Assembly: GCA_964016885.1 (NCBI GenBank)
Contig: OZ024742.1
Location: 343,232,001 to 343,296,000, forward strand
Length of the DNA: 64,000 bases
Direction: 5' to 3'
DNA from: Eledone cirrhosa
Taxonomy: Eukaryota
The notes below the pieces were generated by a model. It made no database searches and was not told where the DNA came from. It saw only the letters and a list, made by a program, of their open reading frames with translations. Made by a program: the position numbers and the translations under genes. The number at the start of each line of letters is the position of its first letter. Position 1 is the first letter of the stretch. This document shows, piece after piece, positions 19,732 to 63,627 of the stretch.

Positions 19732-19809
19732 GAACTTCAGACTTTGGTTAATATGGAAAATGACGAAAAAGATACATGGACCTACTTGACACATTCCGGT
19801 GAACAGAAT
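19732..19809 (+). CDS. Host gene exon A (78 nt, phase 0-0): ELQTLVNMENDEKDTWTYLTHSGEQN
   Basis: Acceptor tttgatctttcAG, donor GTATGT; joins exon B in frame; non-repeat sequence. Confidence 0.7.
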
Positions 19810-19885
19810 GTATGTATTCTATTCTATTCTAGTTTTGAATCAACTCACAGACAATTCTTTACTTGCAATTCAAAACACCTAAAGT

Positions 19886-19886
19886 A

Positions 19887-19919
<33 letters not shown>

Positions 19920-20455
19920 TTTTCCTTTCCAATGCTTACATTTGGTTGGACAGATCCTCTTTGAAACATTGCTTTGTGACTTGTTACATTCTGTCATCTC
20001 CTTTCTTATGTCCAGCATCCTGAGATCAGCTTTCACCACTTCTGCTCTCATCTTCTTTGGTTTTCTTTTCCATGACTTTCTTCCATGTGGAACTCCTCGC
20101 ATTTCTTTACCCTTGTTATCATCATCATCGTCGTGTACGTTTTCCATGCTAGAATCAGTTAGATGGATTGTCCCATTGTGATACAAGTCCATATCCTGCT
20201 CACACAGAACCATTTCTGGTTTGGTTTCTATGGCTAAATGCTCTTATTAACACCAACCACAGGGTGCTTTTTATCATGGCACCAAAACGACCACTTTACA
20301 ATGTGTGCTGAGCACTTTTTGTTGTAGAACCAAAACGACTACTTTACAATGTTGGCTGGGCACTTTTTGTTATGGCATAAACAGAAAAACTTTCAGTGTA
20401 GGCTGGGCACTTTTTATTGTGGCACCAAAACGACCACTTTACAGTGTGGGCTAGG
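19886..20455 (-). mobile_element. Degenerate RTE 3' fragments, including an expanded 3' UTR module (~20260-20455)
   Basis: (CAT)n tails at 19887 and 20117; minus translation ..RKPKKMRAEVVKADLRMLDI; ACCAAAACGACCACTTTACA repeated. Confidence 0.6.
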
Positions 20456-21427
20456 TGAAAAAAAACCCCAAAGTATTACACTTATAAGGGTTTTGCAATT
20501 TCCTTCTACGTAGAACTCCTGGCAAATCTTTACCCTTGTTAGTAACAAAACCCCCTCCCACAAAATACTATTTACTATGAGGGAAGGGGCCTCACTCAAT
20601 ATTTTGGAAGCACTTAGTTAAAAGGAACTTGATATATGATCACATCAAGCAGTGTGTACCCTCAAACTGCTGGGGGTCTTTGACTGAATGACAGTAAAAC
20701 GCAGATGTATTAGAGACATAGGAATATTTAGCAATATATGCAGTATATTCCATTTGACACTTGGACCAGCAAGATAGTCTCTCTGCAGGTCTATCATATA
20801 TATTGTTTTTCTTATGACAGGAGGTAGGGTTAGAACATAAAATGCTGGAACAAACACTGAAACCACCACTAGTTCCATCATAAATAAGAACCTTTGTTAA
20901 GTTATGTTCCAAACTCCAACATAATAATGAGATGTAACCTTGTAAGAGGCCAGATAAACCTCTACAAGTGTGGCTATAAGAACAAACAACATTCATACAT
21001 TTGTGTATATACATACACACTTACATATAGTTGTGTATATATATACTCACATATATGTATTTGTGTACATATGTATATATATATATCCATACATACATAC
21101 ACACATACACCTGTGTATATATACACACACACAGGCATACCTTTGTGAATATACACATACATTTGTACATATATTTGTGTACATACATTTATATGTACAA
21201 ATATATTTGCACACATAAAAATACGTCCTATACGAGCAAGACAACCAATCTTGCCTCAAGTGGGACAATTCCCGTCTAAACTCATGCTAGCGTGGAAGAT
21301 AGACGTTAAACGATGATGATGATGATAATACATTTATGTACATACATATAATACATATACATGCACATACATTTGTATATAAGCATACACATATACATAC
21401 ATTTGTATATAGGCATACACATATACA

Positions 21428-24182
21428 TACTAAATCCCTCCCTCGTGAAGAATGCACCTCCCAACATAGCCTAGTAGTTAGTGACCTCATAGTCAGGAAT
21501 AGACGTACTCGACGAGAGAGGAGGCCTACCTTGAGGAGAAGAATATGGAAGTTGAAGGACCTCATAGCCAGTGACAAATTTAAAAGCTTATTACTTGATG
21601 ACTTTGACAATAAGGAAGAGCAATTAGAGACGTGCAATATAGAGGAACAGTGACAATTCTTGAAAGTGAACGTGCTGAAAGCAACGGATGAAATCTGTGG
21701 CTGGAGGAGAGTAACTTGGTGGTGGAACAGTAAGGTAGAAGAGACAATCAAGGCCAAAAAGCAGGCTTGGAAAGTATGGCAGGATGGGGGAAGTAGAGAG
21801 CACTATCAAGTGGCCAGGAGAAAAGCTAGGAGACAAGTCTACCTTGCAAAATGGGAAACAGAGGAAAGAAAGTTCAAGCATGTTCTCCAACATGAGGACC
21901 AAAAATGCAAGGTATTCAGGATTGCTAGACAATGTGTCAAGGAAAACCGTGATATTGTCGGGGAGAAGTGTGTCCGTAATGATAACAGTGTACTTGCCCT
22001 CACTGATACTGATAAGAAGATAACCTGGAAGTGTCACTACAAGAGACTATTAAATGAGGAGAATAAGTGGGAAAAAGATAGTCTGCCCCAAATCGATCCA
22101 ATAGAAGGACCAGCGGTGCAAGTTAAAGGTATTATAATAAGTAAGGCAATCAAAGATATGAAGACAGGCAAGGCAGCTGGGCTTTCGGAGATAGTTGCTG
22201 AGATGGTGAAGGCATCTGGAATGGTGGGACATACTATGGTCACCCGTATAGTTAACCAAGTAATACAGAATGGGGTCATACCAAAAGACTGGCGTAGCAG
22301 CAGCATCATTAACTGCTACAAGGGTAAAGGAGATGCTCTAGATAGAGGAAACTATAGAGGCATTTAGTTAGTTGACCAGGTCATGAAGGTCACAGAAAGA
22401 GTTATAGCGCAACTAATCAGAGAGCGAATTGATCTAGATAAAATGCAGTTTGGGTTTGTGTCAGGTAAAAGTACCACAGACGCTCTTTTCCTTGTACGAC
22501 AACTACAGGAGAAGTACCTAGCTAAAAGTAAACCCCTCTACTTAGCTTTTGTAGACCTGGAAAAAGCCTTTGACAGAGTCCCCCGCTCTGATGGGCTCTT
22601 AGAAAACTAGGTGTAGATGTATGGCTTGTGAGAGCTATATAAGCTATGTATAATGAAACAGTCAGTAAGGTTAGAATTAACAATGAATATTGTGAAGAAT
22701 TTAGTGTAAAAGTTGGTGTTCACCAAGGCTCTGTCCTTATCCCCCTCCTATTTATTATTGCCCTTCAGGCTATAACAGAGGAGTTCAAGACTGGCTTCCC
22801 ATGGGAACTCCTATACACAGATGATCTAACGCTCATAGCTGAATCAATGGCTGAACTAGAGAAGAAATTCCAAACATGGAAACATTGCCTAGAATCAAAA
22901 GGCCTTAAAGTTAACTTGTCTAAGACTAAAGTTCTAGTTTGTAGAAAAGAAATTAAGGCACAGGTACCCTCAGAGAAATGGCCATGCTCAGTGTATAGGA
23001 AAGGAGTAGGCAGAAACTCCATTTTATGTCCCAAATGCAAAGTATGGGTACATAAAAGATGTAGTGGGATCACAGGTAAACTATCTAAGAACGTAGACGT
23101 TATATGTGGCCGATGCTCAGGTGCAATAGGTAGCAAGTGTCCACAGGATACTAGCCCCTTCTATTGCCCAGATGGTTCTATAGAAATAGTACACACTTTC
23201 CGTTACCTGGATGACAAAATCAGCAGTGGTGGAGGGTGTTCTGAAAGTACAGTAGCCAGAGTCAGAACGGGATGGAAAAAATTCAGAGAGCTTATACCAC
23301 TGTTGGCCACAAAAGGTTTCTCTCTAAAAATGAAAGGCAGATTGTATGATGCTTGTATACGAACAGCAATGCTACATGGCAGTGAGACATGGGCATTACG
23401 TGCAGAGGACCTGCGCAGACTGGAAAGGAACGAAGCATGCATGTTCTGTTGGATGTGTAATAGAAATATACGTGAACGGCAAAGCATGAATGAACTAAGT
23501 GAGAAATTAGGAATAAGGGGGATCAGATGCTGTTTACTTGAGAGAAGACTACGTTGGTATGGTCACGTGATGCGCATGAAAGACAACAGCTGTATAAAAA
23601 AGTGCAGGGCAATTAAAATTGATGGTAGTTACGGAGTAGGTAGACCCAGAAAAACCTGGGATGATCTGATAAATTCCGACCTTACACACTTGCACCTCTC
23701 TAAGACAATGTCACTGGACCAAGATCTTTGACACTACGCAGTAATACAGAAGACCCGCCTTTCCTATATACAATGCGAAACCTACAGTCAGTAGGGACCT
23801 CTTAACCAAATATACACCCCAATCCACTACTCCTACCCTATCCTCCCACTCCCACCAACACCACCCTCTGTCTATAAAGTTGGTACCACAACATCCAGTC
23901 CAAGTAAATGAGATAATGAGATCGAGATCATGTAGGTGTCACGAGAAAAAACACACAGTTCAAGCTGTAATGTGGTCGTGTAGGTAACACGGTAAAAAGT
24001 TCCCAGTTCCACACTGTAAATGTGGTTGGTGTTAGGAAGGGCATCCAACCGTAGAAAACCTGCCAGATAGTCCTATATGAGCGAGACATGGTCACCCGAC
24101 CAACCTTGCCTCAAGTGGGACAACTCCCGTCTAACCCATGCTAGCGTGGAAAATGGACGTTAAACGAAGATGATGATGATGA
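21428..24182 (+). mobile_element. 5'-truncated, decayed RTE-A copy (A2); a 100-bp 3' end of the same family lies at 21224-21325
   Basis: ORF pieces 21336-21653, 21660-22367, 22383-22610, 22646-23731 (YTDD), then 3' UTR and (GAT)n. A 36-bp flanking direct repeat at 21395-21430 and 24182-24217 (1 mismatch) is a possible TSD. Confidence 0.92.
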
Positions 24183-24334
24183 CATACATTTGTATATAGG
24201 CATAGACATATACATACATTTGTGTTTATTAATACATATGTATGTGAAGTTTAAAAGTATTTTGCTATCATGCAAAGTATGACAAAACATAAATTTTACC
24301 TATATAATAGTTGTAAATTAGATATATTCTCCAA

Positions 24335-24525
24335 ATATCGATCGAGCCATGGCAGTGGAGACTTCTGGTGTCTTTGGCCCTAGGGCCACATCCCTGCTCA
24401 CCACCATCAACACAGAGTTGGCTACCTGCAGATCTGAACCTCGCGAGCTGGATTGGCTCTTCCAGTGCGTCTCCCTCACCGTCCTCCGGAGAAACGCCTT
24501 CTCTATTCTGTCCATCGGGGCCACA
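24335..24525 (+). mobile_element. C-terminal fragment of an RLE-type (CRE-like) non-LTR retrotransposon
   Basis: AVETSGVFGPRA..LDWLFQCVSLTVLRRNAFSIL matches the AVET.G.WG..LFQR.S..+.RGNA.S+L C-terminal motif. Confidence 0.7.
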
Positions 24526-24950
24526 GGTTGGTCAGTGCAAGGATCCCCATTTGCTCACAATAGTGAGAGATGGGGAGAGCAGGAGAGATGGAGGCAGTGA
24601 CAATGGGAGTTTGGTCCTTTTGTGTTCAGAGCTGGTGCATATATAAGAGAGAATGAGTCTTTCCCACTATTAGTTAAGTTTGCACTGTTTAATATTTCAC
24701 ATGGTGTCTAAATATTTATAACTTTTCGATATATAACTCCTTGAGAGTATAAAGTAGATAATTGCCTGTGGGATTATCCACTTCAAGGGGTCATATTACC
24801 AATTTATTCTCAACAATTTTATAGTGGAAATTTAGGCATTGTTGTACTTTGTGTGATAGGAAAACACTTTGAAATTTCAATCTTACAATGTGCTTTGTAC
24901 ATGCTCTATTTGTATACATATATAAATTTGTCTACATACATATATACATA

Positions 24951-25148
24951 CAGGGGGACGCTGAAAAGTTCCTGGCTCTAAGGTTATCGCGAAAGGCCTG
25001 GTTGGAGGTCCAACTTTCCAAGGGCTTAGACAAACTGGACCGCTGCAATAAGTGTGTGAATCTGGGAGGAAAATATGTTGAATAAAATCATAATTAACTG
25101 ATCCTCCTTATTTTTACCCCAAACCAGGAACTTTTCAGCACCCCCTTG
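24951..25148 (+). mobile_element. Mariner-derived MITE (internally deleted)
   Basis: TIRs CAGGGGGACGCTGAAAAGTTCCTGG / CCAGGAACTTTTCAGCACCCCC after TA; retains the transposase end GLDKLDRCNKCVNLGGKYVE*. Confidence 0.8.
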
Positions 25149-25257
25149 TGTCCATACTCGCCCCCCTCGTCACCCCCCCCCCCATCTCCGACACCAACCA
25201 CGCCCTTTGCCTGTTCGACTCCCTCACTTACCCACCCGGCCCACACACCCTCCGCTT

Positions 25258-26255
25258 CACCCTCGGTCTAGACGTCGCCTGGTGGGTCGGTTCATGGAGC
25301 ACCTCCGAGATATTCGTCTCGGCGGGAGTTCCCCCATCGCCCGCCACTTTGGTTCCCCTGGACATTCCGCCCACCACCACACCGTCTGTGGCCTGATCCA
25401 ATGCCATGGGATACCCGGCACCCACCTTACGGTCAAGTAACACACCATCTTCACCCTACAGACTCCCCCCCTTGGCCTAAACTCCCCACTCCTCTTCCTT
25501 TAGCCTTCGCCCATCCCCCTCGCCCACACACCCTCTACTAACACCACTAAAACATTCCCTAGTTTCACTATCCCCTCCACCTCCAGTTATTCCCCCAACC
25601 CACCTTCCCCCTCACCACACACCATCACACATACACACACCCACGTACACACTGATATACCACCACTCCACACACACACTACCACCACTAACCCTCACTC
25701 ACACACCTGCATTCAACTCCCCCCCACCCCCCACCACCACTAATAATACTAACACCCACTCTACCACACACACACACACACACACATTCATATCCAAACG
25801 CGCACGCACGCACACACACCAGTACATTACACTCCCTCCTACTGTCCCCACCACCTTCTCCCCCCCCCGTTACCCCTCCCCACATCCCACTAACACTTCT
25901 ACTACTATACACACTGCCCCCCTCCCCCCACACACAAATACCGCCACCCTCTCCCTCTACCTGTCCACCGCATCTCCGCACCCACATACACACATTCTAC
26001 ACCCCATACTGACCATCACTAACACCTGTCAGCCTCCTCCTCCCTACTTTGCCTGCTGTCACCTTCCTACTGCTATCTCTTTTCTCCCTGCCTTGACCCT
26101 CTGACCACTTCCTGTTGCGCACTCACCCCACAACTCTCCACTTCCTCTATACTATACTAAGGATTTTACACCCCGCTCCACCTCTCCAGGCATCCACCCT
26201 GTTATACTCGCAATTTTCAACATCCGTTTCTACAGTCTGCGGAAAAACATCCAGG

Positions 26256-26327
<72 letters not shown>

Positions 26328-26840
26328 ATTTTCGCACCACGCAACCATACATCCACACCACACAAAAGCACACACACACACACATGCGTATCCTCACGTA
26401 CACACAGTCAGCCTCCGGACTCCACATGCCCCCTCTCCCCCACCCTGTCCGACCCCACTCCATCCACACACACACACACACTGACTTACACCCCACCCCA
26501 TGTATACACTGGTTTCCCTATTACCCGAACATGGAACCTCGTTCTTCCCCAAATTCTCATATTCACATCCACACACCTACACCTACACACACAGACACAC
26601 ACACCACCTTCAGCCCTCCCCGCTCGGTCTCCCTCTCCCATTTACCCCCTCCATCCACCTACCATCACCCCCTATACGCCTCACACCCTTTCACCACTTG
26701 TTTCATTTTAATTTTTTTACCCTCTAAAACAATTCCCCCCCCCCTCTTTTAATGTCTTTCCACCACTCCCTCTCACACAGTCGGAACTCTTTTCTGGCCC
26801 ACTTTTCTCCTGATGAAGGGCTTATGCCCAAAACGTCATC
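25258..26840 (+). mobile_element. Penelope-like remnant: GIY-YIG C-terminal half, C/A-rich 3' region, terminal hammerhead-like motif
   Basis: RRRLVGRFMEHLRDIR..SPIARHFGSPGHS..VCGLIQCHG..IFTLQT.PLGLN (25258-25503). At 26810, CTGATGAAGGGCTTATGCCCaAAACGTC (stem II GGGC/GCCC; GAAA changed to AAAA). Confidence 0.75.
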
Positions 26841-26947
26841 CCCCACCCCCCACTCTCAAGTGTGAAACTAATAACATTTTGTACTGCCTCTTCGCTTCGT
26901 TTTTTTTTGTTTTCTGTTTCAACTATAATATATGTATATATATATAT

Positions 26948-29877
26948 TGGTCACGTTAGACAACATTGTGACGGCTACGACGAAATCCATGGAGGCTATG
27001 GGTTTGGTACTAGAAATGAGGAAGGCTCCAGAATCCTGGAATTCTGTGACGCAAATAACCTAACTATCTGCAACACTAACTTCAAAAAACGAGACAATCA
27101 CTTGATCACCTACAGATCAGGGGAACATACCAGCCAGGTAGATTATATCCTTACCAGGAGACGTGACAGAGTGACTGTTGTAAACACTAAATCCCTCCCC
27201 CATGAAGAATGCACCTCCCAACATAGACTGATAATTAGCGACCTAATGGTCAGGACGAGACGTACTAGACAACAGAAGAGGACTATCCTCAGGAGAAAAA
27301 TATGGAAGCTAAAGGACCCCACAGCCAAAAATAAATTTCAAAGCATATTACTTGATGCTTTCGACAGTAAGGAAGAGCATTTAGAGTCGGACAATATAGA
27401 GGGACAGTGGGAATTTCTGAAAGCAAACCTGCTGATGGCGACAGATGAAGTCTGTGGCTGGAGCAGGCCTGTTGGCAGGAGGAGAGTAACTTGGTGGTGG
27501 AACAGTAAGGTGGAGGAGTCAATCAAGGCCAAAAAGCAGGCTTGGAAAGTATGGCAGGATGGGGGAAGTAGAGAAGACTATCAAGTGGCCAGGAGGGAAG
27601 CTAGGAGACAAGTGTACTTCGCAAGAAGGGAAGCAGAGGAAAGAAAGTTCAAGCATGTTCTACAACGCGAGGACCAAAAACGTGAGGTGTTCAGGATTGC
27701 TAGGCAATGTGTCAAGGAAAACAGTGATATTGTCGGGGAGAAGTGTGTACTTAATGATGACGGCGTACTTGCCATCACCGACGCTGATAAGAAGGTAGCT
27801 TGGAAGTGTCACTATGAAAGGCTACTAAATGAGGAAAATAAAAGGGAGAATGACAGTCTCCCCCACATCGACCCAATAGAGGGACCAGCAGTGTTAGTCG
27901 AGGGTAGTATAATAAGTAAGGCAATCAAAGATATGAAGACGGGTAAGGCGGCTGGGCCTTCGGAAATAGTTGCCGAGATGCTGAAGGCATCTGGTACGGT
28001 GGGACACACAATGGTCACCCAGATAGTCAACCAAGTCATACAGAATGGGGCTGTTCCGAAGGACTGGCGTAGCACCATCATCGTTAACTGTTATAAGGGT
28101 AAAGGAGATGCCCTAGATAGGAGTAACTATAGAGGCATTAAATTAATCGACCAGGTCATGAAGGTCACAGAAAAAGTAATAGCGCAACTAATCAGAGAGC
28201 GAATTGATCTTGATGAAATGCAGTTCGGGTTTGTGTCAGGAAAAAGTACCACACGCGCTCTTTTCATTGTACGACAACTACAGGAGAAGTACCTAGCTAA
28301 AAGTAAACCCCTATACTTAGCTTTCGTCGACTTGGAGAAAGCCTTCGACAGAGTCCCCCGTTCCATTATCTGGTGGGCTCTTAGAAAACTAGGTGTTGAT
28401 GAATGGCTTGTGAGAGCTATACAAGCCATGTATAAAGAAACAGTCAGCAAGGTTAGAATTAACAACGAATATAGTGAAGAGTTTAGTGTAAAAGTTGGTG
28501 TTCATCAGGGCTCTGTTCTTAGCCCCCTACTATTTATTATTGCCCTCCAGGCTATAACAGTGGAGTTCAAGACCGGCTGCCCATGGGAACTCCTATACGC
28601 AGATGATCTAACGCTCATAGCTGAAACAATGGCCGAGCTAGAGAAGAAATTCCAAACATGGAAGCACGGCCTAGAATCAAAAGGCCTTAAAATTAACCTG
28701 GCTAAGACTAAAGTTCTAGTTTGTAAGAAAGAAAATAAGGCGGCGGTCCCCTCCGGGAAGTGGCCATGCTCAGAGTGTAGGAAAGGCGTAGGTAGAAACT
28801 CCATTTTGTGTCCCAAATGCAAAGTTTGGGTGCATAAAAGATGTAGTGGGATCACAGGTAAGCTAACTAAGAACATAGATTTTACATGTGGCCGGTGTTC
28901 TGGGGCAATAAGTAGCAGCAAGTGCCCAAAAATGCTAGCTCTTTCAACTGCGCAGAGGGTTCTATAGAAATAGTGGACAGCTTCCGTTACCTGGGTGACA
29001 AAATCAGCAGTGGGGGAGGGTGCTCTGAAAGTACAGTAGCTAGAGTCAGAACTGGGTGGAAAAAGTTCAGAGAGCTCATACCACTATTAGCCGCTAAAGG
29101 GTTCTCTCTAAAAATGAAGGGCAGACTGTATGATGCCTGCATACGAACAGCAATGTTACATGGCAGTGAGACCTGGGCATTGTGTGCAGAGGATATACGC
29201 AGACTGGAGAGAAACGAAGCTTGCATGCTCCGCTGGATGTGTAATAGTAACATACGTGAACGGCAAAGCATAAACGTGCTAAGGGAGAAATTAGATGTTG
29301 TTTACTCGAGTAAAGACTACGTTGGTATGGTCACGTGATGCGCATGAAAGATGACAGCTGTATAAAAAAGTGCAGGGCAATAAAAATAGACGGTAGCCAC
29401 GGAGTAGGCAGACCCAGAAATCCTGGGACGACTTGATAAATTCCGACCTCACACACTTACACCTCTCCAAGGCAATGTCACTGGACCGAGAGCTTTGGCG
29501 CTACACAGTAATAGAGAAGACCCGCCTTACCTAAATACAAAGTAAAACCTACTACAGTCAGTAGGCACCTCTAACAAAATACACCCCGTCCCACTACCCC
29601 CACCCCATCCACACCACCCCTTCAATGTAAAGTTATGTTGGTGTCACAACATCCAGCCCGAAACAAATGAGGTAGTGTAGGTGTCACGACAAAAAAACAC
29701 ACAGTCCACGCTGTAATGTGGCCGTGTAGGCAACACGGTAAAAACCTCCCAGTCCACACTGTAAATGTGGTTGGTGTTAGGAAGAGCATCCAGCCGTAGA
29801 AAACCCGCCAGATAGTCCTATGCGAGCAAGATAACCACTCTTGCCTCAAGTGGGAAAAACCCTCCGTCCTATGATGA

Positions 29878-29880
<3 letters not shown>
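26948..29880 (+). mobile_element. 5'-truncated RTE-A copy (A3)
   Basis: ORF 26862-28967 (RTE from GHVRQH on; YADD), frameshift at ~28929, short deletion at ~29294, shortened 3' end plus (GAT)n; begins directly after (TA)n. Confidence 0.93.
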
Positions 29881-34141: not shown

Positions 34142-34271
34142 GCCATAAATTCAGATATAGGTTCCCTCTCAAGCAGTTCCATTGAGTTCATCCAAGATGA
34201 CATGGTACATTATGGCCCAAGGAAGAGACGTGGAACTGGCAATGGTGGAGAGGAGGCTGTTGCTGATGAAG
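34142..34271 (+). CDS. Host gene exon B (130 nt, phase 0-1): AINSDIGSLSSSSIEFIQDDMVHYGPRKRRGTGNGGEEAVADE
   Basis: Acceptor cttctttcattcAG, donor AAG|GTATTT; open in the frame set by exon A. Confidence 0.8.
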
Positions 34272-35310: not shown

Positions 35311-35467
35311 AAGAGATAGAAGAGGACCCTATTGAATTTATTGACAGTATTGAAAATATCCCCAGCAATGAGATTGTCCCCTTACAGCATCTTTCTCTCA
35401 ACCGGCTGCCATCATCTGCACCACATCCAACTGAAAAAGCCTCACCAATATCACAGACTGGCTCTGA
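35311..35467 (+). CDS. Host gene exon C (157 nt, phase 1-2): EEIEEDPIEFIDSIENIPSNEIVPLQHLSLNRLPSSAPHPTEKASPISQTGS
   Basis: Acceptor ctgtttgatttcAG, donor GTATGT; phases match exons B and D. Confidence 0.8.
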
Positions 35468-38074: not shown

Positions 38075-38124
38075 GGATTCTTCTGATTCAGTGACAGTAC
38101 TATCAGTACCAAACTCTGATATAG
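38075..38124 (+). CDS. Host gene exon D (50 nt, phase 2-1): (E)DSSDSVTVLSVPNSDI
   Basis: Long pyrimidine tract + ccAG acceptor, donor TAG|GTAAGG; phase-compatible on both sides. Confidence 0.8.
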
Positions 38125-38504: not shown

Positions 38505-38604
38505 GTGTTACAACCAACAACAATGGGAAGACCAACGGAAACATTGCTTCCTCTGTCCAATCTGACCATCAGCTCCTTTCTGATATATATAAGGATGATG
38601 ATAT
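38505..38604 (+). CDS. Host gene exon E (100 nt, phase 1-2): (G)VTTNNNGKTNGNIASSVQSDHQLLSDIYKDDD
   Basis: Acceptor actccttctgccAG, donor GTATGT at 38605; frame continues from exon D. Confidence 0.72.
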
Positions 38605-46559: not shown

Positions 46560-47860
46560 CCAATATAATTTTGTATAAGAACCACTGTGTACAGTGCTCA
46601 CATGCACTACAACTCATCAAAGGTTCATGTATAATAGAATAATGTTCAAATGCCAGGAAAGTTAACAGTGTATGAGTCATGACACACACACATGCCTATG
46701 TGTGTATGGAGGGGGAATATCAGGTATAGTGTTGGCGAATTTTGGGAAGCATGGAAGTTTTAAAGGATGCAGTGTCCTGACAGCTAACAACTGATGCAGG
46801 TAGTTTGTTCCATGGAAGTTTTTAAGGATGCAGTGTCCTGACAGCTAACACCTGATGCAGGTAGTTTGTTCCATGGAAGTTTTAAAGGATGCAGTGTCCT
46901 GACAGCTAACAACAGATGCAGGTAGTTTGTTCCATGGAAGTTTTTAAGGATGCAGTGTCCTGACAGCTAACAACTGATGCAGGTAGTTTGTTCCATGGAA
47001 GTTTTTAAGGATGCAGTGTCCTGACAGCTAACACCTGATGCAGGTAGTTTGTTCCATGGAAGTTTTAAAGGATGCAGTGTCCTGACAGCTAACAACAGAT
47101 GCAGGTAGTTTGTTCCATGGAAGTTTTTAAGGATGCAGTGTCCTGACAGCTAACACCTGATGCAGGTAGTTTGTTCCATGGAAGTTTTAAAGGATGCAGT
47201 GTCCTGACAGCTAACAACAGATGCAGGTAGTTTGTTCCATGGAAGTTTTTAAGGATGCAGTGTCCTGACAGCTAACACCTGATGCAGGTAGTTTGTTCCA
47301 TGGAAGTTTTAAAGGATGCAGTGTCCTGACAGCTAACAACTGATGCAGGTGGTTTGTTCCATGGAAGTTTTTAAGGATGCAGTGTCCTGACAGCTAACAA
47401 CTGATGCAGGTAGTTTGTTCCATGGAAGTTTTTAAGGATGCAGTGTCCTGACAGCTAACAACTGATGCAGGTAGTTTGTTCCATGGAAGTTTTTAAGGAT
47501 GCAGTGTCCTGACAGCTATCACCTGATGCAGGTAGTTTGTTCCATGGAAGCTTTTAAGGATGCAGTGTCCTGACAGCTAACAACTGATGCAGGTAGTTTG
47601 TTCCATGGAAGTTTTTAAGGATGCAGTGTCCTGACAGCTATCAACTGATGCAGGTAGTTTGTTCCATGGAAGCTTTTAAGGATGCAGTGTCCTGACAGCT
47701 AACAACTGATGCAGGTAGTTTGTTCCATGCTTCAGCAACTATAAGCATGAAAAAATGTTTCTGAAAGTCATGGGAGCTGTACTGTTTTCTGATTTTGTAG
47801 GCATGTCCATGGGTGTTAGACATGGAATTCATAAAAGTGCTCAGGGTTGTTGTTGGAAAG
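46560..47860 (-). mobile_element. 3' fragment of a CR1-like LINE containing the 61-bp satellite
   Basis: Minus: SNTHGHAYKIRKQYSSHDFQKHFF..AEAWNKLPASVVSC before the array; TSMLPKIRQHYT* and 3' UTR after it. Confidence 0.82.
46750..47725. repeat. 61-bp tandem repeat, 16 copies
   Basis: CATGGAAGTTTT(A/T)AAGGATGCAGTGTCCTGACAGCTAACAACTGATGCAGGTAGTTTGTTC starts at 46750, 46811 ... 47665. Confidence 0.97.
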
Positions 47861-48219: not shown

Positions 48220-48246
48220 AAAATTTGCCTGAGGACTTTTGGTTTG
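48220..48246 (+). CDS. Candidate 27-nt micro-exon (phase 1-1): (E)NLPEDFWF
   Basis: Acceptor tttaaccAG, consensus donor TTG|GTAAGT; needs a phase-1 upstream partner that I could not identify. Confidence 0.3.
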
Positions 48247-53084: not shown

Positions 53085-55751
53085 CATCATCATCATCGTC
53101 ATCATCACCGTTTTACATCCATTCTTCCATGCTAACATGGGTTAGACGGGTTGTCCTGTTGTGGGCAGTGTCTGGTCGGCTAACCATGCCTTGCTCATAC
53201 AGGAACTGATTTTGGCTTGATTTTTACAGCTGGATGCCCTTCCTAACACCAGCCTCATCTACAGTGAGTGCCGGGTGCTTTTTCCGAGGCGCCTACACGT
53301 CCACTTTAAAGTGTGGGCTGGGTGCTTTTTTGCCATGGCGCCTACACGACCACCTTGCAGTGGGAGGGTGTGGGGGCATATTGTCTATATGCTTCAGCTT
53401 GTACCCATGGGAGGTCGGGTACCCTGTATTACTGCGTGACGCCAGAGGTCACGGTCGCTTCTCTCCAATGACATCACAATTCTCTCTGACACACTGCCTC
53501 GCAATCTTGAACACCTCCTGTTTCTGGTCCTCACGTTGCAAAACATGCTTGAATTTTCTATCCTCTGCTTCCCTCCTAGCTAAGTATACTTGTCGCCTAG
53601 CTTCCCTCTTTGTCTCTATGTAATGTACCCTGCTTCCCCCATTCTTCCATTCTTTCCATGCCTGTCTCTTGGCCTTAACTGCCTCATCTACCTTATTGTT
53701 CCACCACCAAGTCACTCTCCTCCTGCTTGTGGTCTTACTCCAGCCACAGACTTCATCCGTCGCCTCTAGTAAGTTATTTTTTAGGAACTCCTAGTGCTCT
53801 TCTACATTGAATGTCTGTATCTGTTCTTCTTTACTGTCGTAGGCGTTGAGTAAAATATCTTTAAATCTGTTACTGGCTGAGGGGTCTTTCAGCTTCCAGA
53901 TCTTTCTTCTCCAGGTTGGCCTCTGTTTTCAGGTTCGTCTAGTTCTGACCGTGAGGTCGCTGACAACTAAGCTATGTTGGGATGTACATTCCTCACTAGG
54001 GTATGCTTTTGTGTTTACGACCATCCATCTGTCACGTCCTCTGATGAGGATAAAATCTATCTGACTAGAATGCTCCCCTGAACTATAGGTGATCAGGTGG
54101 TTGTCGGGTTTTTTGAAGTTTGTGTTACATATCGACATGTCATTGGCGTCGCAGAATTCTAGAAGTCTGAATCCTTCCTCATTTCTTGTGCCAACCCCAT
54201 GGCCTCTATGGACTCTATTGAAGCCGTCACAGTGTTTACCTACGTGTCCGTTAAAATCTCCTGCGATGATTAGGAAGTCATTGTCGTTTGTTAGAGCAGT
54301 AGTGTGCATTAGGGACTCGTAAAATCTATCCTTAAGTTTGTCTGGCAACCCCGATTGGGGTGCGTAAGCTGATATTATTGTGGTAATTGTTTTATTCAGG
54401 ACTAGTCTGAGTTTAATGATTCTTGCATTTACCCTGTATACTGAGATTACTTTATCTACCCACTTGTCAGCTAGTAGTCTCCCTACACCACCCATCCCAT
54501 CGTCATTTCCCACCCAGAAAAATTTGTAGCACTGACTTTTTCCTACAAGGACTCTAGCAGACTCTCCTCTCCATCTAGTCTCTTGCACACAGCATACATC
54601 AATTTCCTTTCGCTCTAGTATTTCTACGATTTCTCCTGCTCTTCCTTTCATTGTGCTTACATTGATGGTACCAACTTTGAGTTTTGGTCATTTGTCGACG
54701 CTCGTAGGGGAGGGTCGATTTTTGCAGGGGTGCGTGTGTGCTTCCTCTCTCTGGATTGGGGCTTCACATGGGTGCTTGGTAGCTCGCGGATTCATATTCA
54801 TTTCATCTATTAATTCAGAGATGCTCCTATTTATTCTCAGCTCATCCATACATAATGGTAGGAAAATTTCAGGGCTAGAAGAACAGTGGTGGTGGTAATA
54901 ATGGCAGAGTGTGTTGGGCTGGTACAGGGGAGGAGAGAGTTAGGTAGTAGTAGTAGTAGTAGAAGAAATGACATGCTGAGGTTTGATTGGTCGAATAGGC
55001 TATGGTGGGTGGGAGGGAAATTGTGAGGTAGGCAGCCAGTCATGGCTATCAAAATAACCGATAGAATACAGCATGGCAAAATGACCGATAGAAATGAATA
55101 CAGCTACAATAATAATAATTGTTTCTACGTTAGGCACAAGGCCAGCAATTACCCAGTGCATTACTGGTACTTTATTTTATCGACCCCGTAAGGATGAAAG
55201 GCAAAGTCAACCTCGGCGGGATTTGAACTCAGATCGTAAAGCGACGTAACTATGCTGGAAAGCATGGCATCCGACCCTCTATTGATACTACCAATCCACC
55301 GCCCTCAGCTACAATAATAACAATAATAATAGCCAGTCATGGCCTGTAGCCTTTGATGGGAAAATAGACAGATAGAGAGGCAGCATGGTAAGAGAAAATG
55401 AGGGTAACAGAATAAATGTGTTGTGGTAGCTAGCAAAGTGATAAATACAGCAATAGTTGCGAGCAGAAAATTTGCAATTGGGGAAATAGGGATACCTAAG
55501 ATTTGTATGGATGGATGGCTGGAACGTAGCTAAACAGCTCTTAGTGATTCATTTTAGCCTTTCAGAGTAGAGTGTGTCTTATCTCTTCAATAACTTCAAG
55601 ATGAGGGAGGTAATAGGTGGCTTAAGAGAGGGTAGCCATCATAGAGAGAGGCTCGCCGTCATGGCTATCAAAATAAACAATAGAAATTGATACAGCTACA
55701 ATAATAATAATAGCCAGTCATGGCCTGTAGTCTTTGATGGAAAAATAGACA
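53085..55751 (-). mobile_element. RTE-B deletion derivative (B2): 5' region + APE + 3' end, RT missing
   Basis: Colinear with B1 except for a junction at 53457/53458 equivalent to loss of B1 12029-13779; ORFs 53929-54651 and 53449-53715; (GAT)n tail at 53085. Confidence 0.92.
55116..55305 (-). mobile_element. SINE inserted in the B2 5' region with a 15-bp TSD
   Basis: CAGCTACAATAATAA at 55101-55115 and 55306-55320 flanks a complete copy of the (TTA)n-tailed SINE. Confidence 0.9.
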
Positions 55752-56339
55752 ACTTTTATCTTTCACTCTTCCAGAGTTGATAAAATAAAATACTAGCCAA
55801 GTACTGGAGTTAATATGCTCAACTGTATCCCCTGCCCCAAACTGTTGGCTTTGCACCTCAGTTAGAAACTGTTAGGGCAGTAGATTACTAAAATCGTTAG
55901 ACAAAATCTTTGCAGTGTTTATTTGATAAAATAAAGTACCAGCCCAGTACTGGGGTTGATATTTTCAATTTTCCCTATTGCACCAAACTGTTGGCTTTGT
56001 TCCTAAGTTAGAAACCATTAGGGCAGTGGATTAGCAGAAGCATTAGAGCATCAGACAAAATACTTTGCAGTGTTTATTCTGACTCTTTACATTCTTAGTT
56101 TAAATTATATTGAGGTCGACTTACCCACAGTAAAATGCATCCAGTACATTCTGTAAAGTGGTTAACAATTGGAAGAGCATCTAGCTCTAGAAACCATGCC
56201 GAAATATGGAAATGTATAAAGGTTGTGTATTTTTACAACCATGTCTTGTCTTAGACCGGAGTAACCCATCCAACCCATGCCAACATGAAAAACAGACATA
56301 AAATAGATTAATGATGATGAATATTATATTTAATTCACC

Positions 56340-56800
56340 AGCATTCAGTAGTCAAAAGCAAGGTAGGTGTAAAAGCCAAACTCGCTATCTTCAATTCGGT
56401 ATTTGTGCCAACCATTAACTATGGTCATGAATCTTGGGTAATGACCGAAAGAATACAATCATGAAATGGGTCTTTGGAGTAACGTTGCTTGAAAGTTGCA
56501 TACCTCGGAGATCAGAGAGTCTCTCCGAATTGAGAGATCACAGCTCCGATACTATGGGCATGTGGTTAGAATGTCTCAGGAAATAACCGCTGGACAGATT
56601 TTATGAGCAAAACCAACTGGGAGGCGACCGAGAAGTAGACCCCAAGCGAGATGGCTGGATAACATCCATGGGCTTAGCTGGTCTTGTTTGGGAATCCAGC
56701 CAGATCAGTTGGAGACGGTTGCTTCTGACAGGACCTGTTGGAAGGAGTTGTTTGAGGACGCTGGCCCCATCACCTCAGGAATAAGTAGACAAAGAAGAAG
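56340..56800 (+). mobile_element. Decayed 3' fragment of RTE-C
   Basis: VKAKLAIFNSVFVPTL..IERSQLRYYGHVVRM..KPTGRRPRSRPQARWLDNI; ends AAGAAGAAG. Confidence 0.75.
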
Positions 56801-58593
56801 ACATACCAGCCCTACAAATTCTTAGATATCTTTTCTTCCTGTCCTTTCATTTTTCTTTAGCCTCCATATTAAAATTATTTTGTTTTATAACCACCTCACT
56901 CCATTTTATGTTTTTTTCTTCAGGCTTTGTTTTGATTTGCCATTTGTTGTTGTTGCTGTTTTTTTTATTATTTTTCATTAAAAAATATTTTAAAAATTTA
57001 TTTTGTTTCTCAGCCAGATTGACAACTATAATTGTAGAACTCAATATTGGTGCTGTTGGCTTCACTTAGCAAAACCTTGTTTTATTTACAGTGGAATCTG
57101 CTTATTGCAATCATGGACAATGTTATCAAGTAGTTACATTCAGGATTATTGTTATCAAAATTAGTAGGTTACAACCATACTTAGGATATTGTTAGATCTT
57201 CCGCTTAATGTAAACAGCTGGTTATTGTTATCAAAATTATTGATCCAAAAACATACTAAGGATATTGTTTTAACCTCTGTTTAATGTTATCAAACACTTA
57301 TTGTTATTTGAAAGGCTGTCTCAAAGTGATTACAATAAGCAACTTCCATTGAATGTTTTTAAATGAAATATTCATTATTATTTTTATTATTATTTTGCAT
57401 GACCACAGCTCAGGTTTGTTAGGTTTAATCCTCTACACCTGACATTGGAACATTTTTGTTTAATTTCTTTTTTGTTTTTTGTTTAGCATATATTGTTTGC
57501 GGCTGTCCCTAAAGTTCCACATTTCACAGCTTTCAAATGAATGTCTTTGATAGCGTGTCGTCATTGCTCTTTATATTATCATTATTTTAGGGCGGTGAAT
57601 TGGCAGTATCGGTAGAGTATTCGGACGCCATGCTTTCCAGCACAGAGTTACGGCCCTTTACGGACTGAGTTAAGGTTAACTTTGCCTTTCAACCTTACAG
57701 GGTCAATAAAATAAAGTACCAGTAATGCACTGGGGTCGATTTAATCGGCTTCCCCCCCCCCAAAAAAAAAATTGATGGCCTTGTGCCTAAATCAGAAACC
57801 ATTATTGTTCCCTAAGTCACCCCTGGTTGGTCCTTCCCCCTATTTTGGGAATTTTCATTGTTGTAATTCTTTGGTTCATTGTTATTTGTTTGTTAATTTC
57901 TTTCTACTCGTTTTCAGTGTACCCCCTCCCACTATCCCTGCCTACTGTATTGTCTGTCCCCTCTTTTTGTTAGCCCTTGTGGATTGCCAGAATCGGTAGA
58001 GCGTCAGACACCATGCTTTGCAGCATAGAGTTACAGCCCTTTACGTTCTGAGTTCAAATCCCACTGAGGTTAGCTTTGCTTTTCATCCTTACAGGATCGA
58101 TAAAATAAAGTACCAGTAACGTACTGGGGTCGATTTAATCAACTTTCCTCTCCCCCAACATCAGAAACCATTATTATTATTATTCAGGGCAAGTGCTCGC
58201 TCTCAGTTCTCTACCTCCAATATACAGGTGCATACTTAGAGCAGGCCTGTCAGCTAGGGTGATGTTGTGACCCTTGGAAGTCCTCCCCCCTCTTTTGAGG
58301 GAATTTACTTTGTTTTAATTTGTTTTTATATTTCGTTATATGAATTTTTTTACACACTAAAACCCCCAATTTTCCATCCTGTTCCGTCTGTACAATCTTT
58401 AATATTTTTCTTCATGTCAGCCCTGCATGGCTAATAAAGAAATCATTATTATTAACATCCTTACGGGGTCGATAAAATAATGTACCAGTCATGCACTGGG
58501 GGTCGATTTAATAGACTTACCCCTCCCCCAAAATTGTTGGGCTTGTGCCTATATAAGAAACAATTATTATTATTAACATTATCATCATTATTA

Positions 58594-60626
58594 TTTTGCA
58601 CATCACCACTGCATTACCGAGCGTATTCTTTGTAATATGTGTGTGGTACCTAGTATTGCTGTTTTTTGTGGTGTTGTTTCTATTGTATTGAAAGTATTCT
58701 TTGTAATATGTGTGTGGTACCTAGTATTGCTGTTTTTTGTGGTGTTGTTTCTATTGTATTGAAAGTATTCTTTGTAATATGTGTGTGGTACCTAGTATTG
58801 CTGTTTTTTGTGGTGTTGTTTCTATTGTATTGAAAGTATTCTTTGTAATATGTGTGTGGTACCTAGTATTGCTGTTTTTTGTGGTGTTGTTTCTATTGTA
58901 TTGAAAGTATTCTTTGTAATATGTGTGTGGTACCTAGAGTATTGCTGTTTTTTGTGGTGTTGTTTCTATTGTATTGAAAGTATTCTTTGTAATATGTGTG
59001 TGGTACCTAGAGTATTGCTGTTTTTTGTGGTGTTGTTTCTATTGTATTGAAAGTATTCTTTGTAATATGTGTGTGGTACCTAGTATTGCTGTTTTTTGTG
59101 GTGTTGTTTCTATTGTATTGAAAGTATTCTTTGTAATATGTGTGTGGTACCTAGTATTGCTGTTTTTTGTGGTGTTGTTTCTATTGTATTGAAAGTATTC
59201 TTTGTAATATGTGTGTGGTACCTAGAGTATTGCTGTTTTTTGTGGTGTTGTTTCTATTGTATTGAAAGTATTCTTTGTAATATGTGTGTGGTACCTAGTA
59301 TTGCTGTTTTTTGTGGTGTTGTTTCTATTGTATTGAAAGTATTCTTTGTAATATGTGTGTGGTACCTAGTATTGCTGTTTTTTGTGGTGTTGTTTCTATT
59401 GTATTGAAAGTATTCTTTGTAATATGTGTGTGGTACCTAGTATTGCTGTTTTTTGTGGTGTTGTTTCTGTTGTATTGAAAGTATTCTTTGTAATATGTGT
59501 GTGGTACCTAGAGTATTGCTATTTTTTGTGGTGTTGTTTCTATTGTATTGAAAGTATTCTTTGTAATATGTGTGTGGTACCTAGTATTGCTATTTTTTGT
59601 GGTGTTGTTTCTATTGTATTGAAAGTATTCTTTGTAATATGTGTGTGGTACCTAGTATTGCTATTTTTTGTGGTGTTGTTTCTATTGTATTGAAAGTATT
59701 CTTTGTAATATGTGTGTGGTACCTAGTATTGCTGTTTTTTGTGGTGTTGTTTCTATTGTATTGAAAGTATTCTTTGTAATATGTGTGTGGTACCTAGTAT
59801 TGCTATTTTTTGTGGTGTTGTTTCTATTGTATTGAAAGTATTCTTTGTAATATGTGTGTGGTACCTAGTATTGCTGTTTTTTGTGGTGTTGTTTCTATTG
59901 TATTGAAAGTATTCTTTGTAATATGTGTGTGGTACCTAGTATTGCTGTTTTTTGTGGTGTTGTTTCTATTGTATTGAAAGTATTCTTTGTAATATGTGTG
60001 TGGTACCTAGTATTGCTATTTTTTGTGGTGTTGTTTCTATTGTATTGAAAGTATTCTTTGTAATATGTGTGTGGTACCTAGAGTATTGCTATTTTTTGTG
60101 GTGTTGTTTCTATTGTATTGAAAGTATTCTTTGTAATATGTGTGTGGTACCTAGTATTGCTGTTTTTGTGGTGTTGTTTCTATTGTATTGAAAGTATTCT
60201 TTGTAATATGTGTGTGGTACCTAGTATTGCTGTTTTTTGTGGTGTTGTTTCTGTTGTATTGAAAGTATTCTTTGTAATATGTGTGTGGTACCTAGTATTG
60301 CTGTTTTTTGTGGTGTTGTTTCTATTGTATTGAAAGTATTCTTTGTAATATGTGTGTGGTACCTAGTATTGCTGTTTTTTGTGGTGTTGTTTCTATTGTA
60401 TTGAAAGTATTCTTTGTAATATGTGTGTGGTACCTAGTATTGCTGTTTTTTGTATGTTGCATATATTTGTAAGTCCTGGAGTTTTGGTTATATATCTGTT
60501 TGTGTGTGTTCAATCATTCCCAGAGAACCTATAATTATAGGGATGTTTCTGTTTTCATCATCCACATTCAGGTTATTTGTATCTCTAGATCTTTATATTG
60601 GAGAAGTTTCTCCATTTTCTTGGTAG
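58594..60626 (-). mobile_element. 3' fragment of an R4/Dong-like RLE retrotransposon in (TAA)n, containing the 71-bp satellite
   Basis: Minus 60626-60390: KMEKLLQYKDLEIQIT*MW.MKTET/PIIIGSLGMI../YITKTPGLTNICNIQKTAILGTTHILQRILSIQ*; (TTA)n-type runs on both flanks. Confidence 0.78.
58623..60452. repeat. 71-bp tandem repeat, 25 full copies plus 1 partial (some 73-bp variants)
   Basis: GTATTCTTTGTAATATGTGTGTGGTACCTAGTATTGCTGTTTTTTGTGGTGTTGTTTCTATTGTATTGAAA; variants with CCTAGAG or GCTATTT interspersed. Confidence 0.97.
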
Positions 60627-61382
60627 ATATATTATTATTATTAAGGGTGGTAGATTGGAAAAATTGATAGTATATTGGATAAAATGTCACTGCAGTATTT
60701 GCTCTGGCTCATTTACATTCTGAGTTCAAATCCTGGCAAGATTAACTTTGCCCTTCATTATTTTAAGGCCGATAAAATAAAGCATCAGTAACGCACTGGA
60801 AACAATTTAATCAACTTTCCCCTTCCCCAAAATAATTGGCCTTGTGCCTAAATCAGAAACCATTATTATTATTATTATTTAAAAAAAAAGAAACACAGCC
60901 CATTATGTTCTGGGTTCAAATACTGCCGAGGTTAGCTTTGCTTTTCATCTTTATGGGATCGATAAAATAAGTACCAGTAATACACTGGGGTCGATTTAAT
61001 TGACTTTCCCTTCTCCAAAATTGTTGGCCTTTTGCCTAAATCAGAAACCATTATTATTATTATTATTATTATATGTATGGATTAGGGATTGACACAAATC
61101 AGAGCATCAAACAAAATACCTTCCCTTATTTAATTATCGTCCTTTACGTTCTGATTTGAAATCTCACCAAGGTCATCTTTTCCTTTCACCCTTTCAAATC
61201 TCATAAAATAAAGTACCTGTCAAGTACTGCAGTTAATATAATTGTCTGCTCTTCTACCTATCTGAGATAATGCATGTGGATTAGAATGGTGGAAGATGGC
61301 AAAATTGGTAGGGATCTAAGGAATCATGCTATTTAGTTATGTCTCTTTCTGTTCTAGGTTCAAATTTCACCTAGGGCTGACA

Positions 61383-61435
61383 TTGCTCAAGTAAGTAGCA
61401 AAGCTGGCTCAAATATACAATAATGAGATAGTGTA

Positions 61436-61475
<40 letters not shown>

Positions 61476-62185
61476 AATGAATAATAACAGGTAGACATCA
61501 TAAAAAGGTAATTTATATATATATATTTAATATATATATATTTAAGTAGCTGAAGAAACAGTACAGGACCTACACATATATAAGAACTAGCTCAAATAAG
61601 CAGCAGAAGAAATAGTGCTGTATTTATATATATATATAAAATCTGGCTCAAATAAACAATAGATCTGGCTAAAATAAGCAGCAGAACTGGCTAAAGTAAG
61701 CAGCAAACAAAACTGTTGTGTTTATATATAAATGAGCAGGCTCAAACCAAAAGTAGATGTGGCTCAAGTAAGCTGCAAACAAAACTGCTGTATGTATATA
61801 TAAATGGACAGACTCAAGCCATAAGTATATATGGCTCAAGTAAACAGCAAATCTGACTAAAGCAAGTAATAGATCTGGCTCAAGTAAGCAGCAAAAGAAT
61901 CGGTGCTGTATTTATATATATAAAGTAGCTGGCTCAAGTAAACATCAGAAGAAACGGTGTAGGACATATATATGTATATAAAATACCTAGATGTATGTAG
62001 TAATAAGTTGACTCAATTTTCAATAGAATTGGTTTAAGTAAACACAGCTGACTCAAGTGTAGACAGTACAGGGTTTATATATTAAAATACTGGCTCAAGT
62101 GAACAGCAAAAGAGACAATGTAGTGTTTATATATGAAAGGACTAGTTCTACCAAATAGCAGAACTGGCACAATCAAGTAGCAAAA
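61383..62185. repeat. Old, irregular array of a TGGCTCAAGTAA(G/A)CAGCA motif alternating with short TA runs
   Basis: More than 12 degenerate occurrences of GGCTCAAGTAA/GGCTCAAATAA with variable spacing. Confidence 0.7.
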
Positions 62186-62480
62186 GAAAAAAAAAGGGGG
62201 GGGGGGGGGTCAGGACTTATATATACCATTTGGTGGCACCAGTGTTTTGCATTTTTGTATTTTTTTTTTTTTGCTCATATTTTTGGCTATTTTGTTCTTT
62301 TTTGATTATTTTCCTGATTTTGGCTACCTAGCTCTACATTCAGCACTGTATCTACACATGTTTTAAACTCCTGTTGTACAAGTAATGTAAGCATACATCT
62401 ACACATATATATAATTAAGAATGGTTTTCAGAATGGGATCGGAAAGAAGCCACAGTTAAATAAAGTATTCAGTACATATT

Positions 62481-62608
62481 TATTTCAAATAGAAATGACT
62501 TCTACAGGTCAAAAACTGTTTCATTCATTTGAAATCACCAGATGTTCCTGATGATTTCAAATGAATGTAACAGTTCTTGTCCTGTAGAAGTCATTTCTAT
62601 ATGAAATA
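62481..62608. ncRNA. Palindrome containing two inverted, mutated hammerhead motifs (family of 6311 and 33903)
   Basis: Right arm ttc CTGATGA tttcaaatgaat GTAA cag ttcttgtc ctg TA gaa; the left arm reverse complement is CTGGTGA tttcaaatgaat GAAA cag tttttgac ctg TA gaa. Confidence 0.65.
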
Positions 62609-63100
62609 TATGTGGAAGCAAGACATGGGTGCTGATTTTGGAGCAGCTGAGAAGGTTTGAATGAATGGAAATGAGAATGGTTCTGTGACTGAGCTGAATA
62701 TTGCTCAGGGAGAGGAAGACAAGCAATGAATTGCAGAGAATGGTGGGAAAAGAGCTAGTGGTTAATGTTATGAAGAGAAATGGAATGAGATGGCTGAGTC
62801 ATGTGTTCAGGAAAAATGAAAATAGCTGGTTGAGGAATAGAACCTGTTATGGATGTTGTGAAGAGAAATGGAATGTGATGGTTGGGTCATGTGTTGAGGA
62901 AGTATGAAATTGGCTGGGTGGTTGAGTGGAGTGATGGAAATGAATGTATCAGGAAGAAAAGGAAGAGAAAGACCAGAAAAAACATGGCTAAAGATGGAGC
63001 AGGAAATGAAAGCCTGGAGTTAGTGAGAAGTGATGTAGACAATAGGACAAAATGGAAAAGCTTGTCATAGGGCCTGCTAGGTTAATCCCTGTTTTAGCTG
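62605..63100 (+). mobile_element. Ancient RTE 3' fragment
   Basis: GSKTWVL..LRRFE*MEMRM..LRERKTSNELQRMVG..KRNGMRWLSHVFRK..RKRKRKTRK; multiple stops. Confidence 0.65.
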
Positions 63101-63360
63101 AGAAATGTTTGTGTATGTATATATATCTAATACATTAAAAATAAGACCAAATACTGTTAATTATATCATTTAATGCATGTTTCTTCCATATTACAGGATA
63201 TATAATTAATTATTAGTTAATTAATTATATAATCCAATAACTGGGTTCATCAGAATTAATAAAAAATATAAGAAACATTATTTCCTTTACAAATCATTTC
63301 CTATATGTGTTTACCTTACTGGTAAAATGTTTATATTTGAATATTCTAAATATGTGTGTG

Positions 63361-63442
<82 letters not shown>

Positions 63443-63504
63443 TATATATATAAATATAAATAAATTAATTAATGTACATATTTTTGTCTTTAAACCATTT
63501 CAAG

Positions 63505-63627
63505 ATTCTGACTTTGAACTCCTCAATCAGCAAAGCTTCTCAGATTTAGCATACCTTCAGCTCGCTGCAAGAACTGGATGTTTACTGAATTCATCTGACC
63601 AATGTGACCTCAAGTTCAGAAATTCAG
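63505..63627 (+). CDS. Host gene exon F (123 nt, phase 1-1): (D)SDFELLNQQSFSDLAYLQLAARTGCLLNSSDQCDLKFRNS
   Basis: Acceptor tttaaaccatttcaAG, donor CAG|GTGAGA; open, non-repeat, coding-like. Requires a phase 2-to-1 linker exon after exon E. Confidence 0.68.

Follow-up and report, generated by a model that had tools for sequence, protein, structure and literature searches.

A candidate CCPG1-like ER-phagy receptor gene in the cephalopod Eledone cirrhosa

Introduction

CCPG1 is a receptor for the selective removal of endoplasmic reticulum by autophagy (ER-phagy). The mammalian protein binds ATG8 through an LC3-interacting region (LIR) and FIP200 through two FIP200-interacting regions (FIRs), both of which are required for ER-phagy (PMC5791736), and its cargo-interacting regions (CIRs) bind lumenal cargo (PMC10092646). 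Four sources term it vertebrate-specific (PMC5791736, PMC10092646, PMC9126229, PMC6154861), and PSI-BLAST with the CCPG1 cargo-binding regions is stated to have given no relatives (PMC10092646). Invertebrate CCPG1 was not found in the literature that we searched, where subscription papers were scarce; members may already be listed in supplementary tables of genes, in bioRxiv supplements or in orthology databases. Here we describe a gene that begins in a 64,000-nt stretch of the 3.0-Gb Eledone cirrhosa genome (contig OZ024742.1, positions 343232001-343296000, hereafter the window). Judged from its sequence, it likely encodes the single cephalopod pro-orthologue of CCPG1 and PBXIP1.

LIR cores follow the pattern [WFY]-x-x-[LIV] (PMC7615515), and FIR cores consist of an acidic residue or phospho-S/T, a hydrophobic residue, two free positions and [LIV] (PMC7946963). 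A net-negative disordered tail is described as common to organellophagy receptors (PMC12431859). PBXIP1 (HPIP) carries the CCPG1_N and CCPG1_C families like CCPG1, according to the ESM Atlas. Yeast Atg39 is a type II protein whose disordered cytosolic N-terminus bears Atg8- and Atg11-binding motifs and which also has a lumenal domain (PMC9126229); it has the same layout as the protein described here, to which it would be a functional analogue only. The LIR of FAM134B (RETREG1), D-D-F-E-L-L-D, resembles the D-S-D-F-E-L-L of this protein, which the cuttlefish sequence continues with D-Q, and D-F-E-L-L is followed by a conserved possible helix, as in helix-extended LIRs. However, the reticulon-homology domain of FAM134/RETREG proteins has two long hydrophobic hairpins, whereas one hydrophobic window only is found here, and the LIR lies N-terminal to the hydrophobic segment, unlike in FAM134B/RETREG1. 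The likeness to FAM134B is one of motif, not homology.

Results

Layout of the gene and its product

The full model has ten exons and an optional 27-nt micro-exon. Coordinates above 64,000 extend the window numbering downstream, and adding 343232000 gives the contig position.

19732..19809 (+): exon A, 78 nt; ATG at 19753; LIR core W9-T-Y-L12 with acidic/Thr residues upstream
34142..34271 (+): exon B, 130 nt; FIR1-like core S-I-E-F-I, aa 32-36
35311..35467 (+): exon C, 157 nt; acidic linker; PIEFI motif, not kept beyond Octopus-like sequences
38075..38124 (+): exon D, 50 nt; FIR2-like core S-V-T-V-L, aa 120-124
38505..38604 (+): 100-nt stretch formerly taken as an exon; outside the coding chain, breaks the frame, no orthologue match
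48220..48246 (+): alternative micro-exon, 27 nt, 9 aa, identical to Octopus records
63505..63627 (+): exon F, 123 nt; second LIR/FIR core D-F-E-L-L; conserved S-D-L-x-x-L
63628..64000 (+): first part of the intron that follows exon F; the remaining exons lie past the window end
76483-76794 (+): exon G; predicted transmembrane helix, aa 263-281
79955-80007 (+): exon H
83714-84620 (+): exon I; coiled coil, 11-aa repeat
88095-89844 (+): exon J; CIR1-like helix, basic region, Cys-rich domain
91668-91839 (+): exon K; stop codon

The predicted protein (1,236-1,245 aa) shares with CCPG1, in the same order, a W-T-x-[IL] LIR (residues 14-17, W14-I17, in the human protein and 9-12, W9-T-Y-L12, here), an S-x-I-E FIR1-like core, a FIR2-like core near aa 105-125 (104-109 in human, 119-124 here) and one membrane helix within aa 230-280 (after ~230 aa in human, 262 aa here). 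The likeness extends into the C-terminal part, with a coiled coil, an L-W-x-R-L-Y helix (CIR1), an amphipathic helix that, by eye, may be CIR2-like, a basic stretch and a helical domain starting at a Cys. The cephalopod protein is ~490 aa longer, and it alone carries an extra FAM134B-like LIR, the S-D-L-x-x-L core, the micro-exon, the 11-aa lumenal repeat and eight invariant C-terminal Cys. It further differs from CCPG1 in a longer LIR-FIR1 gap, a Ser-type FIR2, other gene neighbours and the lack of an HMMER link.

Similarity to CCPG1 in feature searches and in the CIR1 region

A preliminary description, made from the letters of the window, had proposed a CCPG1-like identity, and this is supported by the ESM Atlas. 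With O. bimaculoides model P0004, which is without the LIR exon, CCPG1 clusters took ranks 1-3 (score 0.91, 198-199 of 256 features). CCPG1 made up 17 of the 30 matches listed and the ten best family-bearing matches all agreed, while PBXIP1 clusters (0.84-0.88) stood lower, at ranks 12 and 24 among the matches listed. In calibration, at least 170 shared features were reached by 9 in 10 true family members versus 1-2 in 10 chance matches. Lumenal residues 335-625 alone, which hold none of the motifs of the preliminary description, again retrieved CCPG1 at ranks 1-3 (0.78-0.80, 146-147 features) as the sole family among the matches listed; the score of 0.80 for this part is a lead only, the tool being uncalibrated for protein parts. 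An uncharacterised 1,172-aa cluster of 95 members at rank 18 (0.87), whose commonest phylum is Arthropoda (phylum known for 2), is a lead to wider protostome members. The N-terminus of P0004 is unrelated to that of the other sequences.

The CIR1 region was compared in five sequences, namely this model, P0012, P0001, P0002 and the cuttlefish-type P0016; the remaining 12 of the 16 orthologue records are near-duplicate or partial. An invariant vertebrate CIR1 core is given in supplement Fig. S7A of PMC10092646, and P0001 is identical to it at 7 of 9 residues. Scores of its nine-residue end were 34, 37, 41, 32 and 25, respectively, and local shuffles equalled them in 1, 0, 0, 0 and 19 of 2,000 cases, the 19 belonging to the cuttlefish and the 0-1 to the four octopod sequences. 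In every sequence the best gapless CIR1 match lies after the coiled coil. Octopods retain L-W-x-R-L-Y of the core and the cuttlefish R-x-D-x-x-E-x-L-Y-x-E; gapless comparison by eye gave 12/24 matching positions between P0016 and zebrafish and 9/23 between this protein and human CCPG1. Visual comparison with the alignment in that supplement suggested an A-K-E helix at the place of CIR2 and a W-x13-G-hydrophobic spacing at that of CIR3.

A multi-LIR type II receptor could also have arisen convergently, without common descent, its acidic tail, single membrane helix and coiled coils mimicking CCPG1 to the language model. Such an origin would be consistent with the same layout in yeast Atg39, with the absence of synteny and with the lack of significant alignment to vertebrate proteins. 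It is at odds with the retrieval of CCPG1 by the lumenal part alone and with the complementary halves of the CIR1 core that octopods and cuttlefish hold at the expected place, and we regard it as very unlikely.

Conservation of LIR and FIR motifs

All motifs of the preliminary description were located on the + strand, and the acidic, Ser-rich character that it had noted holds for residues 1-262 (net charge -35, 20% Ser/Thr; -26 to -45 in four orthologues). In the five-sequence alignment, 52 of 260 cytosolic positions are invariant, with clusters at W9, L12, S15-G-E17, S32-I-E-F-I36, S117-S118, S120, L124, D141-S-D-F-E-L146 and S153-D-L155/L158/L160. W9-T-Y-L12 is a canonical W-x-x-[LIV] LIR whose W and L are invariant in 5/5 sequences. 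All five residues of S-I-E-F-I are invariant, and the FIR2-like core reads S-[VI]-x-x-L in 5/5 sequences; both fit the five-position FIR core in 5/5 sequences and the stricter six-position form in 4/5 each. Conservation of the motifs among mollusc orthologues had been expected. From octopods to cuttlefish it was found for W-x-x-L, SIEFI, S-[VI]-x-x-L and DSDFEL, but not for EDPIEFI, which is present here with 0/5 columns invariant and is not kept in Argonauta or cuttlefish. SEDSSDSVTVL is formed solely across the exon C/D junction. Among the human motifs with which the preliminary description had drawn its parallel, CGWTVI, S22-D23-I24-E25, SDDSDIVTL and the FAM134B sequence DDFELLD occur in papers; SHEG and the final M-L of SDIEML were not encountered in print. 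The ordered N-terminal motif score was equalled by 2, 1, 0, 1 and 57 of 2,000 shuffles in the five sequences. ATG8 binding by the cephalopod protein appears likely.

These motifs could instead be chance occurrences or sorting signals in an unrelated cephalopod membrane protein. Acidic Ser-rich sequence is prone to contain short motifs, the GGA-binding pattern D-x-x-L-L is likewise compatible with D-F-E-L-L, whose last position is Met in Argonauta, and no Pfam family was found over the cut-off. Nevertheless, CCPG1, named beforehand, came first twice among 7.7 million ESM Atlas clusters, and the joint motif score was equalled in 0-2 of 2,000 shuffles in each of the five sequences; we regard an unrelated protein as very unlikely.

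Membrane topology and the lumenal part

One transmembrane helix and a lumenal coiled coil had been anticipated downstream, and both are predicted. There is one hydrophobic window, at aa 263-281 (KD19 2.37 versus 0.82 for the next best), which is the single peak in 5/5 sequences. No hydrophobic signal peptide was observed in the protein. N-glycosylation sequons lie C-terminal of the helix in 8 of 9 cases here, at least three C-terminal places being common to all four octopod sequences compared, while in P0012 4 of 10 are N-terminal of it. The lack of a signal peptide together with the recurring C-terminal sequons suggests a type II topology with a cytosolic N-terminus. The coiled coil gives a heptad signal at aa 316-377 and sub-threshold matches to coiled-coil Pfam families, and a whole-protein AlphaFold model of P0012 places a helix at 309-381, although its low confidence (pLDDT 32.6) leaves only rough helix placement usable.

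After the coiled coil follow an acidic repeat, the L-W-K-R-L-Y helix, an amphipathic helix, a long basic region and the Cys-rich domain. Eight Cys of this last domain are invariant across six sequences. Its predicted structure (pLDDT 61.7) gave 0 Foldseek matches at E<=0.001 and a best VIA-align Z of 6.5, to generic helical bundles.

The acidic repeat, in exon I (L010:9714 to L011:620), is an in-frame 11-aa unit with 14 pattern matches between the coiled coil and the CIR1-like helix. At the corresponding position Argonauta carries an acidic repeat of another kind and Octopus lacks one, which suggests independent expansion of this linker.

Support for the gene model

Exons A, B, C and D have AG/GT ends and share one open frame, which exon F, joined directly to D, continues. 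The 11-exon model has AG/GT at all junctions and 1,245 codons followed by its single stop, the open frame spanning 72 kb and extending past the window end. The chain A-D plus F is not due to chance, because all these exons are collinear with orthologues, including P0001 (1,116 aa on a 3,918-nt contig) and the Octopus, Argonauta and cuttlefish records, and the gene is virtually certain to be real. Both P0001 and P0016 (680 aa, 2,714-nt contig) are continuous across junctions that span tens of kb here, and are therefore most likely spliced transcripts of relatives.

Conservation begins at the Met of exon A. O. sinensis models extend further upstream, but a longer N-terminus was rejected, since neither the 100 kb preceding the window nor the part of the window ahead of exon A yielded a matching upstream exon. 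A 13-14-aa segment of Octopus and Argonauta records had no counterpart in the intron between I and J (L011:621-4094; best score 5).

Of the five GT-AG exons that the preliminary description had joined to F in one frame, A, B, C and D stand, and so does F, whereas the 100-nt exon (38505-38604) does not. It ends in phase 2, whereas F requires phase 1, a stop follows two codons past the junction, and internal GT donors do not restore the frame. No BLASTP match to it was found among the 16 orthologue records. It was also rejected as a cassette, and if read as an alternative terminal exon it enters an AT repeat and lacks support. The micro-exon and the five exons past the window had been missed.

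The micro-exon was located by scoring the Octopus peptide along the D-F intron (score 51 versus 26 for the runner-up). Of 14 records spanning the D-F junction, 6 contain it, and both forms occur within O. vulgaris and within O. sinensis. Its inclusion creates an S-D-I-E-N-L core at the junction, absent from the other form, and places aromatic residues ahead of the second LIR. This core matches the four human CCPG1 FIR1 residues, S22, D23, I24 and E25, that were mutated in PMC5791736. The micro-exon starts ~490 bp past the end of a 61-bp tandem array.

Orthologues and sequence searches

Cluster look-ups led to O. bimaculoides LOC106877925, O. sinensis LOC115217867, O. vulgaris, Argonauta hians and a cuttlefish record. 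None is labelled CCPG1: the cuttlefish P0005 is called 'EPS15', which is a mislabel, and all others are 'uncharacterized', 'hypothetical' or unnamed. The closest named relatives are octopod, with 69-76% identity over the first 380-400 aa to the Octopus-type records covering the region and 32% to cuttlefish. When exon J was compared by phmmer with 1.84 billion representatives, 3 matches were obtained, and a profile search gave 4 among 7,993 scored candidates; all were cephalopod-type. Word-index searches with exon C alone and exon J alone returned nothing, the latter leaving out proteins of >1,022 aa, the size class of most orthologues. A PDB sequence search with P0012 gave 0 matches, and a metagenome scan yielded 136 pattern matches, 0 of them confirmed. 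A genome search with the C-terminal domain gave one match. P0003 was considered as a secreted paralogue and rejected; by eye it corresponds to an internal part of P0016 and looks like an open reading frame from a large exon.

Genomic setting

Microsatellites and retrotransposon frames are abundant in the window. Long non-LTR retrotransposon frames (endonuclease plus reverse transcriptase with YADD, by eye) lie at 7562-10363 (-), 11965-15087 (-) and 26817-28967 (+), besides many fragments; one frame of 1,040 aa appears near-complete. A 203-aa frame at 4565-5176 (+) looks by eye like the GIY-YIG endonuclease of Penelope-like elements. Near-perfect tandem arrays occupy 15388-17719 (98-bp unit), 46750-47729 (61-bp unit) and 58623-60453 (71-bp unit).

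The nearest genes observed around the candidate are a BTB-type gene and an RNase PH gene. The former is a BTB-domain kelch-like frame (by eye) ~60 kb upstream of the window (-), the latter an RNase PH exosome-subunit gene at L020:8870-9601 (+; Pfam E 6.5e-27). A Cys-rich chitin-binding-like frame was seen by eye in L028 (-). ATG8-family genes gave 7 matches at four loci of this genome. The ATG11 family, used for FIP200, gave 0 genome matches, as did the controls, and an ATG17-like search gave 52 with the appearance of coiled-coil or repeat noise.

Discussion

Several observations weigh against a CCPG1-related ER-phagy receptor. The HMMER searches (3 phmmer and 4 profile matches) returned no vertebrate or other non-cephalopod protein, and no Pfam family exceeded the cut-off, orthologues included, in the older release used, which is without PF27636. 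Shuffled proteins reach an ESM Atlas score of 0.9 in 4-10 of 100 cases, and the two ESM Atlas results are one kind of evidence. The shuffle counts for the motifs are optimistic, because the motifs were picked after the resemblance had been seen and the scorer's placements may differ from the earlier ones. The six-position FIR pattern, with 8 occurrences over 262 aa, is so common by chance that only conserved cases count. The FIR2-like core carries Ser, not Asp, before the hydrophobic residue and would need phosphorylation, and the LIR-to-FIR1 gap is 24 residues (W9 to I33) versus 10 in human CCPG1. The C-terminal Cys-rich domain is like vertebrate CIR3 weakly, by eye, and no ER-retention signal was identified in the protein. 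Finally, no synteny was observed, with 0/10 PIGB-family, 0/1 PIERCE and 0/2 L24e matches on the gene's contig, where L24e stands for RSL24D1, a CCPG1 neighbour gene. Coleoid genomes are heavily rearranged, so the missing synteny carries low weight.

The protein could be a true CCPG1/PBXIP1 homologue with another role, such as a scaffold or a receptor for Golgi or secretory granules, nearer to PBXIP1 or to the signalling-scaffold role with which CCPG1 is also credited (PMC9126229). PBXIP1 clusters carry the same Pfam families at scores of 0.84-0.88, no ER-retention signal was identified, and the lumenal part is ~960 aa compared with 518 in human, with its long basic region and Cys-rich domain. 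Yet CCPG1 ranks above PBXIP1 with P0004 and is alone among the matches listed for the lumenal part, the LIR and FIR-type cores are retained from octopods to cuttlefish within an otherwise diverged tail, and the net-negative disordered tail is a trait of organellophagy receptors (PMC12431859). We consider such a different role unlikely, and the cephalopod protein is probably an ER-phagy receptor.

If the mammalian CCPG1 mechanism can be transferred to it, the receptor would link ER cargo to the start of autophagosome formation. Misfolded cargo would be gathered in the lumen by the CIR1-like helix and the Cys-rich domain. Ser phosphorylation would activate the FIR-like cores S-I-E-F-I and S-V-T-V-L, which, together with S-D-L-x-x-L, may bind the FIP200 Claw, leading to recruitment of FIP200/ULK; only the first two would depend on phosphorylation. 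W9-x-x-L12 (and F144-x-x-L147) would then dock lipidated ATG8/GABARAP, and the piece of ER would be engulfed. In the most speculative step, inclusion of the micro-exon would supply a FIR core that needs no phosphorylation and would strengthen FIP200 recruitment.

The finding would extend a known family rather than provide a new mechanism, and orthology databases may already group the cephalopod protein. It would give an identity to a gene whose Octopus and Argonauta records read 'uncharacterized' and whose cuttlefish record is mislabelled EPS15. It would also act as a filter over deep time, the few CIR1 residues common to cephalopods and vertebrates being direct candidates for the cargo-binding surface. 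We lean, with some reserve, towards the view that CCPG1, a dual ATG8/FIP200 ER-phagy receptor carrying a lumenal cargo-binding helix, arose before protostomes and deuterostomes split and persists unrecognised in molluscs, and that in octopods a micro-exon adds a phosphorylation-independent FIP200-binding core that tunes autophagy initiation by splicing. A cephalopod member would contradict the 'vertebrate-specific' label of CCPG1 and would place the origin of lumenal-cargo ER-phagy at the bilaterian ancestor or earlier.

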